64,000 nt of DNA. Source: Squalus acanthias. Taxonomy: Eukaryota. Location: positions 186,001-250,000 of the forward strand of contig JASTWF010000327.1 in assembly GCA_030390025.1 (NCBI GenBank), written 5' to 3'. Position numbers and translations under genes: made by a program. Below, piece by piece: positions 28,763-61,355 of the stretch; the first letter of the stretch is position 1, and every line of letters starts with the position of its first letter. A model generated the notes under the pieces. It ran no database searches. It was not told where the DNA came from and was given only the letters and a program-made list of their open reading frames with translations.

Positions 28763-29689
28763 TCACTTGTGAACTCGCTGGTGTCTCAGCAGGTTGGATG
28801 ACTGATTGAATCCCTTCCCACACACGGAGCAGGTGAACGGCCTCTCCCCAGTGTGAACTCGCTGGTGTGCCAACAGGTTGGATGACTGAGTGAATCCCTT
28901 CCCACACACGGAGCAGGTGAATGGCATCTCCCCAGTGTGAACTCGCTGGTGTGTCAGCAGGTTGGATGACTGATTGAATCCCTTCCCACACACGGAGCAG
29001 GTGAACGGTCTCTCCCCAGTGTGAACTCGCTGGTGTGTCAGCAGGTTGGATGAATGAGTGAATCCCTTCCCACACACGGAGCAGGTGAATAGCATCTCCC
29101 CAGTGTGAACTCGCTGGTGTGTCAGCAGGTGGGATGACCGAATGAATCCTTTCCCACATACGGAGCAGGTGAACGGCCTCTCCCCAGTGTGAATGCGCTG
29201 GTGTATCAGCAGGTTGGATGAATGAGTGAATCCCTTCCCACACACAGGGCAGGTGAACGGCCTCTCCCCAGTGTGAATGCGCTGATGTCTCAGAAGGTCG
29301 GAGGAATTAGTGAATCCCTTCTCACACATGGGGCAGGTGAACGGCCTCTCTGCAGTGTGAATGTGCTGGTGTATCAGCAGGGTGGATGAATTAGTGAATC
29401 CCTTCCCACACACAGGGCAGGTGAACGGCCTCTCCCCAGTGTGATTGCGCTGGTGTGCAATGAGGTGAGATGACTGCCTGAATCTCTTCCCGCAGTGAGA
29501 GCAACTGAACGGTCTCTCCTCAGTGTGAACTCGCTGGTGTGTCAGAAGGTGGGATGACTGACTGAATCCCTTCCCACACTCGGAGCAGGTGAACGGCCTC
29601 TCCCCGGTGTGGCTGCGTCGATGAATTTCCAGCCGGGACGGGGAGCTGAATCCCTTCCCACAGTCCCCACATTCCCACGGTTTCTCCGT
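28763..29689 (-). CDS. ZNF-E: open C2H2 array, 11 fingers; start uncertain (ACG at 29689)
   Basis: Frame open from 29725 to TGA 28763; TGA at 29885-29887 and 29726-29728 upstream; first ATG only in finger 5. Confidence 0.7.
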
Positions 29690-30061
29690 GGTGCGGGTGT
29701 CCTTGTGTCTCTCCAGGTCGAACGATCAGTTGAAGCCTCGTCCACACACAGAACACGTGCACGGTTTCTCCCCGCTGTGAACGGTGCGATGTTTTTTCAG
29801 GCTGTGTAACTGGTTAAAGCTCTTTCCACAGTCAGTGCACTGGAACACTCTCACTCGGGTGTGTGTGTCTCGGTGCTTTTCCAGTCACACTGATGTTTGA
29901 AATCTTTTCCCACAGACAGAACAGACAAACATTTCTCCTTCCACATTCAAAGGCTGATGATATTCCCTGTAAAAGTAGTTTACAAAGGTCATCACTGTAA
30001 GTTCAGGATTAAAATGCAGAACAGATAATTCTAGTTTCTATGGAACATTCTTTCCTCTCTT

Positions 30062-30310
30062 ATTACATAGAATTACATAGATTGTACAGCACAGAAACAG
30101 GCCAATCGGCCCAACTGGTCCATGCGGTGTTTATGCTCCACACGAGCCTCCTCCCATCTCTCTTCATCTCACCCTATCAGCATCTCCTTCTATTCCTTTC
30201 TCCCATGTGTTTATCCAGCTTCCCCTTAAATACATCCCTGCTGTTCGCCTCAACTACTCCCTGTGGCAGCAAGTTCCACATTCTCAGCACTCTCTGGGTG
30301 AAGGAGTTTA
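30062..30310 (-). mobile_element. CR1 3'-end fragment in ZNF-E intron (second fragment at ~30722-30945)
   Basis: Encodes FTQRVLRMWNLLPQGVVEA; CR1 3'-UTR motif (rc ttgggccgattggcc). Confidence 0.8.
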
Positions 30311-31194
30311 ATCTAAATAGGACTTTCCTGGGCAGCCAATGAGCACTGCTGCCTCTTTCGTGCATTTCCTGGTGAGGCGCAACAGTTGATATTTTCTGAT
30401 CAAAAAGAGCTGAGCTCGGCAGCATTAGTCCTGTTTTGCATCCTTTGGAGACCAGGTGTACGAGCAGAGTGAGCGCAGCCTTCACAGCAACCGCAATAAA
30501 ATTGTTACAGTTGTGAAGGAACTTTGTGTCAGTGCACTGGACCAGAAACAAAGTATGTGTGTCGATTATTGTCTGACTGCACTACTGTAAAGTGCCTTGA
30601 AATGTTTTAAAAGCTCTATATAAAGGTAAGTTGTTGTTGGTGTATAGAGTACTCTGTTGAAATTTAGTGAAATGATCGATAACCAAGGAAGATCATTTCT
30701 TTGTTTGGTTCTGTTAGTTTTCATAGAATCATGGAAAAGTACAGCACCAAGGAGGCCATTCGGCCCATCGTGCCTGTGCTGGCTCTTAGAATGAGCAGTC
30801 GTGCTTAGTCCCACATCCCTGCTTGTGTCCGTAACCCTGTAAATTCCTCATCCTCAAATACCCGCCCAACTCCCTTTTAAAATCATTGATGGGATCAGCT
30901 CATGACTTTTTCAGGTAGGGCGTTCCAGATCCCGACAACTCTCCAATTGTTACCATAGTTGCCTTCTGTGAAGGTTTAATAATAAATGCATTTTGCTATG
31001 AAAGCAATTAAAACATTTCCAGTATATAAATAGACAGATGCATCAAAATATTAAAATTGTGGGAGGGAGGGCAGTGCCCGCCCAGGGCCCAAAAAACAAC
31101 GGAATTCTTGTTTCCCAACCCAATGTTTAGAAGATGAAGTCCCAGAGCTGCCTCTGGCTCGGTTCCACCTGCCCTATTCTGACAAGCTGAGGTG

Positions 31195-31305
31195 TTGGTC
31201 AGTGCACTGTGATTGGTCAGTGCACTGTGATTGGTCAGTGCACTGTGATTGGTCAGTGCACTGTGATTGGTCAGTGCACTGTGATTGGTCAGTGCACTGT
31301 GATTG
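31195..31305. repeat. 18-bp tandem repeat, ~6 copies
   Basis: Unit gattggtcagtgcactgt. Confidence 0.95.
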
Positions 31306-58590: not shown

Positions 58591-58604
58591 CTTGAGTGTG
58601 GTAG

Positions 58605-60432
58605 TGACCCAGCCAGAGTCAGCACCTTCAGGGGAGGACAGGGAGGGGAACCAGTGAGTGTAGAACTGAACCCAGCCAGAGTCAGCACCTTCAGGGGAGG
58701 ACAGGGAGGGGAACCAGTGAGTGAACTGAACCCAGCCAGAGTCAACACCTTCAGGGGAGGAGAGGGAGGGGAACCAGTGAGTGTAGAACTGAACCCAGCC
58801 AGAGTCAGCACCTTCAGGGGAGGAGAGGGAGGGGAACCAGTGAATGAACTGAACCCAGCCAGAGTCAGCACCTTCAGGGGAGGAGAGGGAGGGGAACCAG
58901 TGAATGAACTGAACCCAGCCAGAGTCAGCACCTTCAGGGAAGGAGAGGGAGGGGAACCAGTGAGTGTAGAACTGAACCCAGCCAGAGTCAGCACCTTCAG
59001 GGGAGGACAGGGAGGGGAACCAGTGAGTGTAGAACTGAACCCAGCCAGAGTCAGCACCTTCAGGGGAGGACAGGGAGGGGAACCAGTGAGTGAACTGAAC
59101 CCAGCCAGAGTCAACACCTTCAGGGGAGGAGAGGGAGGGGAACCAGTGAGTGTAGAACTGAACCCAGCCAGAGTCAGCACCTTCAGGGGAGGAGAGGGAG
59201 GGGAACCAGTGAGTGTAGAACTGAACCCAGCCAGAGTCAGCACCTTCGGGGGAGGAGAGGGAGAGGAACCAGTGAGTGTGGAACTGAACCCAGCCAGAGT
59301 CAGCACCTTCAGGGGAGGAGAGGGAGGGGAACCAGTGAGTGTGGAACTGAACCCAGCCAGAGTCAGCACCTTCAGGGGAGGAGAGGGAGGGGAACCAGTG
59401 AGTGTAGAACTGAACCCAGCCAGAGTCAGCACCTTCAAGGGAGGAGAGGGAGGGGAACCAGTGAGTGAACTGAACCCAGCCAGAGTCAGCACCTTCAGGG
59501 GAGGAGAACCAGTGAGTGAACTGAACCCAGCCAGAGTCAGCACCTTCAGGGGAGGAGAGGGAGGGGAACCAGTGAGTGAACTGAACCCAGCCAGAGTCAA
59601 CACCTTCAGGGGAGGAGAGGGAGGGGAACCAGTGAGTGTAGAACTGAACCCAGCCAGAGTCAGCACCTTCAGGGGAGGAGAGGGAGGGGAACCAGTGAAT
59701 GAACTGAACCCAGCCAGAGTCAGCACCTTCAGGGGAGGAGAGGGAGGGGAACCGGTGAGTGTAGAACTGAACCCAGCCAGAGTCAGCACCTTCAGGGGAG
59801 GACAGGGAGGGGAACCAGTGAGTGTAGAACTGAACCCAGCCAGAGTCAGCACCTTCAGGGGAGGACAGGGAGGGGAACCAGTGAGTGAACTGAACCCAGC
59901 CAGAGTCAACACCTTCAGGGGAGGAGAGGGAGGGGAACCAGTGAGTGTAGAACTGAACCCAGCCAGAGTCAGCACCTTCAGGGGAGGAGAGGGAGGGGAA
60001 CCAGTGAGTGTAGAACTGAACCCAGCCAGAGTCAGCACCTTCGGGGGAGGAGAGGGAGAGGAACCAGTGAGTGTGGAACTGAACCCAGCCAGAGTCAGCA
60101 CCTTCAGGGGAGGAGAGGGAGGGGAACCAGTGAGTGTGGAACTGAACCCAGCCAGAGTCAGCACCTTCAGGGGAGGAGAGGGAGGGGAACCAGTGAGTGT
60201 AGAACTGAACCCAGCCAGAGTCAGCACCTTCAAGGGAGGAGAGGGAGGGGAACCAGTGAGTGAACTGAACCCAGCCAGAGTCAGCACCTTCAGGGGAGGA
60301 GAACCAGTGAGTGAACTGAACCCAGCCAGAGTCAGCACCTTCAGGGGAGGAGAGGGAGGGGAACCAGTGAGTTAACTAAACCCAGCCAGAGTCAGCACCT
60401 TCGGGGGAGGAGAACCAGTGAGTGTAGAACTG
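58605..60432 (+). repeat. 63/60/51-bp minisatellite, ~30 monomers, with a 795-bp higher-order repeat
   Basis: Unit gtgagtgtagaactgaacccagccagagtcagcaccttcaggggaggagagggaggggaacca; variant ttcggg recurs at 59245 and 60040. Confidence 0.97.
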
Positions 60433-60637
60433 ATCATACTGAAAACTGGGAGCGGAGGACAAACTATCTTGAGACGTCTTTGGATTTTAGCACAGGGAGG
60501 AGGGACAATATGTGGGACGGGGATTTACAGCTTTGGAGGAAGAAGAGGGGAAAGAATGTTCGATAGAAACTAAAATTGTCTGTTCTGAATTTCTGTCCTG
60601 TACTTACAGTGATGAATTTTGTAAACTCCTTTTACAG

Positions 60638-61355
60638 GGTATTAGAACAGGAGGATTTGCAGATGGGAAACTCAAACCAAACATCATGTCAAAATCTGAC
60701 AGTCGCTCGTTTACTCAGCACCTGAATATTATCGGCCTTTGAATGTGGAAGGAGAAATGTTTGTCTGTTCTGTCTGTGGGAAAAGATTTCAAAGAACAGT
60801 ATGACTGGAAAAGCACCGAGACACACACACCCGAGTGAGAGTGTTGCAATGCACTGACTGTGGAAAGAGCTTTAACCAGTTACACAGCCTGAAAAAACAT
60901 CGCACTATTCACAGCGGGGAGAAACCGTACACGTGTTCTGTGTGTGGACAAGGCATCAACTGATCGTCCAACCTGGAAAGATACAATGACACCTGCACCA
61001 CGGAGAAACCATGGAAATGTGGGGACTGTGGGAAGGGATTCAATTACCCGTCTGAGCTGGAAATTCATCATCGCACTCACACTGGGGAGAGGCCGTTCAC
61101 CTGCTCCATGTGTGGGAAGATTTCACTCAGTCATCCGACCTGCTGATACACCAGCGAGTTCACACTGGGGAGAGACCGTTCACCTGCTCCATTTGTGGGA
61201 AGGAATTCACTCGGTCATCCACCCTGCTGAGACACCAGCGAGTTCACACCGGGGAGAGGCCGTTTACCTGGTCTGAGTGTGGGAAGGGATTCACTCGGTC
61301 ATCCAACCTGCTGAGACTTCAACGAGTTCACACTGGTGAGAGACCGTTCAAGTGA
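60638..61355 (+). pseudogene. ZNF-J: short C2H2 array, frameshifted and degenerate
   Basis: Acceptor ttttacag ends 60637; TGA 60802-60804 and 60961-60963; ACG 61000; 1-nt loss near 61118; last finger has Cys->Trp and His->Leu. Confidence 0.85.

Follow-up and report, generated by a model that had tools for sequence, protein, structure and literature searches.

The 64,000 nucleotides (nt) of Squalus acanthias analyzed here (GCA_030390025.1, contig JASTWF010000327.1, positions 186,001 to 250,000 of the forward strand; hereafter the window, on which all positions below are based) contain seven copies of a C2H2 zinc-finger gene in which the codon at the head of the finger array is either ACG or ATG. 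They belong to an effector-less C2H2 zinc-finger gene family with at least 1,869 copies, in which ACG is the majority state of this codon and the state of the codon does not predict whether the array behind it is intact. With moderate confidence, we read the working array as probably translated from the ACG, which stands in a consensus Kozak context behind a leader of dead fingers that is itself likely untranslated.

Copies of the family share a common layout, consisting of a splice acceptor approximately 364 nt before the codon, a stretch of three dead fingers that holds two TGAs in frame (TGA1 and TGA2), the codon itself, the C2H2 array, and a shared end. The candidate start is ACG in copies A (10151), E (29689), G (37644), I (54898), and J (61000) and ATG in copies C (21674) and H (47808); six of the seven lie on the minus strand and J lies on the plus strand. 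ACC precedes the codon in all seven, +4 is G everywhere except in copy G, where it is A, and the first base of TGA2 stands 39 nt before the first base of the codon, with 36 nt between. From the ACG, copies E (28763..29689, start CACC-ACG-G at 29687..29689), G (36970..37644), and I (54224..54898), all on the minus strand, are open for 308, 224, and 224 codons and encode 11, 8, and 8 fingers, respectively. Copy G has no in-frame ATG in its 224 codons, and the first ones in E and I come at codons 121 and 189; because an AUG in another frame occurs at +17 in all seven copies, rescue through an internal Met is unlikely. Both ATG copies are broken, C by a frameshift in finger 6 and H by a TGA at codon 24, as are two of the ACG copies, A by a stop at codon 16 and J by a frameshift in finger 2. 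Reread from the sequence, the codons, their ACC context, the +4 base, the TGA spacing, and the state of copies C, E, G, H, and I are all as the initial annotation of this stretch had described them.

Genome-wide, the 23-letter site is matched exactly by 1,301 sequences with ACG, 506 with ATG, and 62 with ACA. Just two of the seven window copies match the query exactly, so the family must be larger than the exact-match count. The arrays consist of C-x2-C-x12-H-x3-H units with TGEKP-type linkers in a single frame, as expected of tandem C2H2 fingers (PF00096), and protein database searches returned 27 and 1 matches, mostly to generic zinc-finger proteins. Neither KRAB nor any other effector family is among the Pfam matches listed for E, G, and I (25 of 39 listed for E). 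An effector exon joined in frame, as in KRAB-ZNF or FiNZ-ZNF genes, was not found, two in-frame TGAs lying between the acceptor and the array; the FiNZ profile was not searched. In 169/172 intact copies the array ends in a TGA, after which comes an open stretch of approximately 17 codons that these copies have in common, and a few copies read on to the next stop (examples of array ends are at 28763 and 54224 and in loci L067, L072, and L087).

The initial annotation had proposed that intact arrays lack an ATG, while cautioning that seven copies were too few to call the association. The caution was justified, since the window table (3/5 ACG copies intact versus 0/2 ATG copies) gives a Fisher P value of 0.43, and the proposal itself did not survive the genome-wide contingency comparison. 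We catalogued 312 of the at least 1,869 copies, comprising the window and 279 loci taken from the first listed matches by codon, which makes the sample stratified and not random; seven copies were dropped as cut off, and 6 of the remaining 305 had other codons. Arrays were intact in 73/133 ACG, 65/110 ATG, and 29/56 ACA copies (P = 0.52 for ACG versus ATG; 0.52, 0.75, and 0.41 for the three pairwise comparisons). Merging copies less than 1.5% apart, which kept 217 of 268 full-leader copies, left 58/98 ACG, 43/82 ATG, and 15/33 ACA copies intact (P = 0.37 for ACG versus ATG). Approximately 45% of all copies are broken, and intact ATG arrays are not shorter (mean of 8.6 versus 7.7 fingers). The association of ACG with intactness in the window is small-number noise and should be dropped.

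ATG and ACA are the two CpG transition products of ACG, and both are scattered over the family tree. On a tree of 217 flanks built with the codon excluded, a short alignment in which 133 of 214 inner branches are open, ATG requires 58 changes, compared with a mean of 66.6 after shuffling, and strong branches force at least nine of them; ACA requires 25. ATG would appear either to recur or to be moved between copies by conversion, which are indistinguishable here because common variants show almost no linkage, even when just 5 to 8 nt apart. Together with the copy counts, the tree bears out the earlier picture of an ACG majority on which ATG keeps arising; ATG is a recurrent mutation and no marker of broken genes. 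A sister subfamily, represented by copies B (15179..15964, minus strand, 261 codons open from 15964) and D (23761), starts at a strongly placed AUG, lacks the TGAs of the leader, and has GGG, the Gly of the TGEKP linker, in the column of the ACG/ATG codon, so the codon arose at a linker Gly. Copies of this subfamily are two fingers shorter in front, and D (23761 to 24830, plus strand) stops at codon 62. TGA2 (leader position −39) is itself a CpG site, with CGA in 48/312 copies, TG in 233/312, and CA in 0/312.

The leader evolves neutrally as protein, and the arrays, whichever codon they carry, are short of damaging changes. For 70 disjoint pairs of paralogues drawn from 260 arrays, the ratio of nonsynonymous to synonymous change (pN/pS) and the nonsense ratio were 1.00 and 1.32 in the leader, compared with 0.50 and 0.14 in the arrays. 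By class, the array values were 0.55 and 0.16 for ACG-ACG pairs (21 pairs), 0.46 and 0.09 for ATG-ATG pairs, and 0.41 and 0.14 for ACA-ACA pairs (5 pairs); the ACG copies do not show the ratio near 1 that the initial annotation had set as part of its refutation. We also counted private non-CpG changes at the structural residues (C, C, F, L, H, and H) as seen/expected, which gave 9/28.7, 12/22.7, and 2/7.5 for intact ACG, ATG, and ACA copies, respectively, compared with 19/22.1 for broken ACG copies and 31/29.9 for the leader. At these residues, ACG copies that are intact differ from those that are broken (P = 0.008), and the synonymous rates of the two groups are equal. In 73 intact non-ATG copies, the fingers that precede any in-frame Met had 4 structural changes where 22.0 were expected, and 23 intact non-ATG copies without any Met had 2 against 10.1. 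Timing each pair by its own leader gave 16/47.9 for non-ATG pairs and 5/32.4 for ATG pairs. Selection on ACG arrays is likely, although not certain.

These arrays combine an ACG in strong Kozak context with constrained coding sequence that has no in-frame AUG upstream of it, the pattern expected of a near-cognate start. The A of the ACG is changed in 3/1,304 copies and the A at −3 in 2/1,303 (0.15 to 0.23%), compared with a median of 1.2% and a lower quartile of 0.4% over 75 A sites of the leader. The +4 G is lost from 17/1,318 ACG copies versus 14/520 ATG copies (P = 0.044, one of several tests), which is the expected direction because, in the available text of PMC5778536, ACG starts gain 7-fold from a +4 G. 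Conservation of the context bases is no more than suggestive of selection on the start. The initial annotation had suggested that weak non-AUG initiation may be the normal low-dose state of these genes; a start at ACG is indeed likely, given the constraint upstream of the first Met and the conserved context, but such initiation is unproven as the normal state, and "weak" may be overstated, as the best ACG contexts, not necessarily including this one, reach up to 40% of a consensus AUG in mouse cells in the available text of the same study.

If translation does begin at the ACG, ribosomes would have to get past two short open reading frames (ORFs) upstream, or re-initiate once these are translated, and would start with reduced efficiency. 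An ACG-to-ATG mutation would then raise the output of that copy and be tolerated, ACG-to-ACA would lose the start and be rarer, and ATG would represent a one-way mutational change per copy instead of a regulated switch. The broader claim, that more than 1,000 shark zinc-finger genes have ACG as their main start and that CpG decay retunes copies up (ATG) or off (ACA), we hold tentatively, at a little short of even confidence. Two A's at −258 and −257, at an upstream out-of-frame AUG (37901 to 37902 in copy G), are unchanged in 239 copies, and the 31-codon upstream ORF that begins there may matter for re-initiation.

Several observations weigh against a start at ACG. Conservation like that of its context bases is found at 14 of the 75 leader A sites, which are likewise unchanged in approximately 250 copies, and no special hairpin lies downstream of the ACG in four stretches (z of 0.6 to 1.7). 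The ACA copies are about as intact and as constrained as the others, broken ATG copies are also deficient in structural changes (5/18.5), and where both members of a pair are intact, constraint is stronger with ATG (1/19.2 versus 10/28.9 for non-ATG, P = 0.03), although the private-change count in intact copies points the opposite way. Our strictest test, restricted to isolated and private differences in 46 close pairs, found no structural deficit in non-ATG pairs (6/4.3); its numbers are small and unpolarized, its filter favors structural-residue changes, and other missense changes in the same subset are still low (9/18.7). Synonymous divergence in the arrays is approximately twice that of the leader, a sign that fingers convert one another, and such conversion could mimic the signal of selection. 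ATG outnumbers ACA by 8:1, and the transition products at other leader CpGs are found at 41:7, 8:56, and 5:144. We rejected the 8:1 skew as proof of selection, these other sites being equally skewed in either direction.

Much of this fits the alternative that only the ATG copies and the AUG sister subfamily make protein, with the ACG copies forming a transcribed, untranslated reservoir that recent duplication and gene conversion keep intact-looking until CpG decay gives an ATG. The strictest pair test, the doubled synonymous rate of the arrays, the intactness of ACA copies, the stronger constraint in intact ATG pairs, and the broken 45% of copies are all as a reservoir would have them, and the leader stops would all lie in the last exon, so that transcription alone implies nothing. 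It sits less well with the difference between intact and broken ACG copies at equal synonymous rates, with ATG copies making up just 27% of the possible donors and being no more often intact, and with a +4 G and two A's kept better than expected. We regard a reservoir as unlikely, although a serious contender.

A start upstream of the ACG is a second concern. An in-frame CUG (R-AC-CTG-G) lies at −27, nine codons before the ACG, and could be used alone or together with it; the ACG/ATG/ACA codon would then be a Thr/Met/Thr site, which would account for the constraint on ACA copies. The CTG is kept in 202/213 copies, in 196 of which it has a purine at −3 and G at +4, no stop separates TGA2 from the codon in any of the 213 (stop-making transversions, 0 versus 8 in the control), and CUG is generally the best non-AUG start, as far as the available text of PMC5666671 and PMC5778536 goes. 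However, its conservation is ordinary for the leader, and the CTG is a leftover Leu codon of a dead finger. We also compared its loss between backgrounds, which gave no support for a CUG start, the losses being equal on ACG (26/923) and ATG (12/433). This explanation seems to us improbable, if less so than those that follow.

Translation could also come from the in-frame AUG at −243, present in 253/272 copies, through read-through or recoding of both TGAs, or from an AUG that arises through a splice joint within the 36 nt behind TGA2 or through C-to-U editing. TGA1 is retained in 276/283 copies, and TGA2 is CGA in 48/312. Intact non-ATG copies with an in-frame leader look more constrained than those with a broken leader (3/20.1 versus 8/16.0, P = 0.056), which may reflect copy age. 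Read-through is unlikely because the leader evolves neutrally, a net leader frameshift is present in 25 of the 73 intact non-ATG copies (alignment based), and there is no shortage of stop-making transversions from TGA1 to TGA2 (16 versus 2 in the control). Coding selection on both sides of a stop, as in read-through genes and selenoproteins, was not found, the leader giving a pN/pS of 1.0 and structural changes of 31/29.9.

Splicing and editing were assessed in sequencing runs that are "RNA-like" by guess (none of those listed is recorded as RNA), available as contigs and from organisms other than that of this genome, with depths that are sums and no measure of expression. Three RNA-like contig sets from three studies drop 28- to 245-fold in depth across the acceptor (between bins 1851 to 1870 and 1891 to 1910 of locus L052), whereas a DNA-like run stays level, a weak hint of splicing there. 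A single loose end, also at the acceptor, is compatible with an exon farther upstream, and coverage extends over the whole leader; loose ends of the sister-subfamily type also occur. Among the joints listed, from contigs only, none enters the 36 nt before the codon, so the ATG supplied by splicing that the initial annotation had allowed for is not seen. The editing that it had floated is not needed, as ATG is genomic (506 copies), and there is no ATG excess in the RNA-like runs, a weak hint given the unmatched organisms: the ATG share of the depth at the codon is 13, 16, and 22% there and 48% for the DNA-like run, and 27% of the exact-match copies in this genome have ATG. A neighboring CpG variant falls likewise (9, 4, and 10% versus 24%), so the drop in ATG is not specific, and we take from these data only the weak hint that most of the sequence in the RNA-like sets is of the ACG type. 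All routes from an upstream or edited AUG are, in our judgment, very improbable. The strong form of the earlier proposal, in which full AUG expression is harmful and ATG copies are soon broken, would fit the 0/2 intact ATG copies in the window, and a cost is conceivable, tandem-finger translation causing ribosome collision and mRNA decay in zebrafish (in the available text of PMC11620358), but it is refuted at the level of intactness by ATG arrays that are intact in 65/110 copies, not shorter, and at least as constrained.

The remaining features of the window are as follows. The leader of copy G (37645..38008, minus strand; acceptor placed by homology with L052) holds upstream AUGs at −257, in another frame, and −243, in frame and 15 codons from TGA1 (37842), followed by the CTG (37671) downstream of TGA2 (37683). 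Both upstream AUGs are lost in copy I, whose TGA1 and TGA2 are at 55096 and 54937. The leader of copy E (29690..29966, minus strand; TGA1 from 29887, TGA2 at 29728, and CTG at 29716) is shortened at the start of exon 2, where approximately 87 nt are missing (29966), and an insertion of approximately 1.3 kb lies in its intron (30064 to 31360). Also on the minus strand are copies C (20759..21674, leader to 22038, TGA1 at 21872, and TGA2 at 21713), H (47139..47808, leader to 48172), and A, with a long broken array (8156..10151, leader to 10515); copy J is on the plus strand (61000..61350, leader from 60638, TGA1 at 60802, and TGA2 at 60961). A putative CpG-rich, promoter-like region with a splice-donor-like site near 22392 (minus strand) lies upstream of copy C (22100..22800) and contains motifs that we take to be YY1- and NRF1-like. 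Such stretches are found upstream of several copies and are of the same type before ACG and ATG copies. Copies C and D stand head to head around a single CpG-rich stretch (22000 to 23700), which may serve as a bidirectional promoter. A 63-bp tandem repeat is expanded in the presumed introns of G (38209 to 38973) and J (58593 to 60424), and 40-bp and 67-bp tandem arrays occur at 3542 to 5102, 11375 to 12585, 43375 to 43753, and 52977 to 53452. Decayed zinc-finger remnants without a leader are present at 32780 to 33170 (minus strand) and 57600 to 58070 (plus strand), and an isolated C2H2-like motif ahead of a stop at about 5905 (minus strand) resembles the end of a LINE ORF2.

If ACG is the start, annotation that requires an ATG miscounts or truncates most of the family, since 72% of exact-match copies are without ATG, and the family would offer a natural allelic series (ACG, ATG, and ACA in one context) relating start strength to the dose of a DNA-binding protein. 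If instead the ACG copies are a conversion-maintained reservoir, they are a large transcribed pool, any member of which needs just one CpG mutation to become a new gene. We found no paper on the start codon of this family in a literature that was mostly open access and judged largely by title and the start of the abstract. Predicted proteins from Heterodontus francisci (P0003 and P0028) and Scyliorhinus torazame (P0027) contain the same leader-derived sequence and first finger, but these are automatic predictions in which the leader is read through shifted frames or subfamilies are joined, and they are uninformative on the real start.

In the available text of Wells et al. (2023, PMC10547256), the tetrapod KRAB-ZNF and cyprinid FiNZ-ZNF families resemble the shark family in having hundreds to thousands of clustered paralogues, many of them broken, with the array confined to a single last exon and variable finger numbers; the main text of that paper makes no mention of sharks, cartilaginous fishes, or start codons. 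The shark genes differ in that the last exon opens with dead fingers, most copies have no AUG at the head of the array, and no effector is among the matches listed. Known non-AUG starts include those of yeast ALA1 (ACG), DAP5/NAT1 (GUG only), and the FMR1 leader (ACG), which, as far as the available text of Kearse and Wilusz (2017, PMC5666671) and Diaz de Arce (2018, PMC5778536) goes, share with the shark site a near-cognate codon in strong context (A at −3 and G at +4). Those cases are single genes or N-terminal extensions, whereas the shark ACG would be the main start of more than 1,000 paralogues, a non-AUG-initiated family far larger than the known cases compared here, and one in which, unlike in those cases, copies whose site has changed to ATG or ACA stand side by side with the ACG copies.

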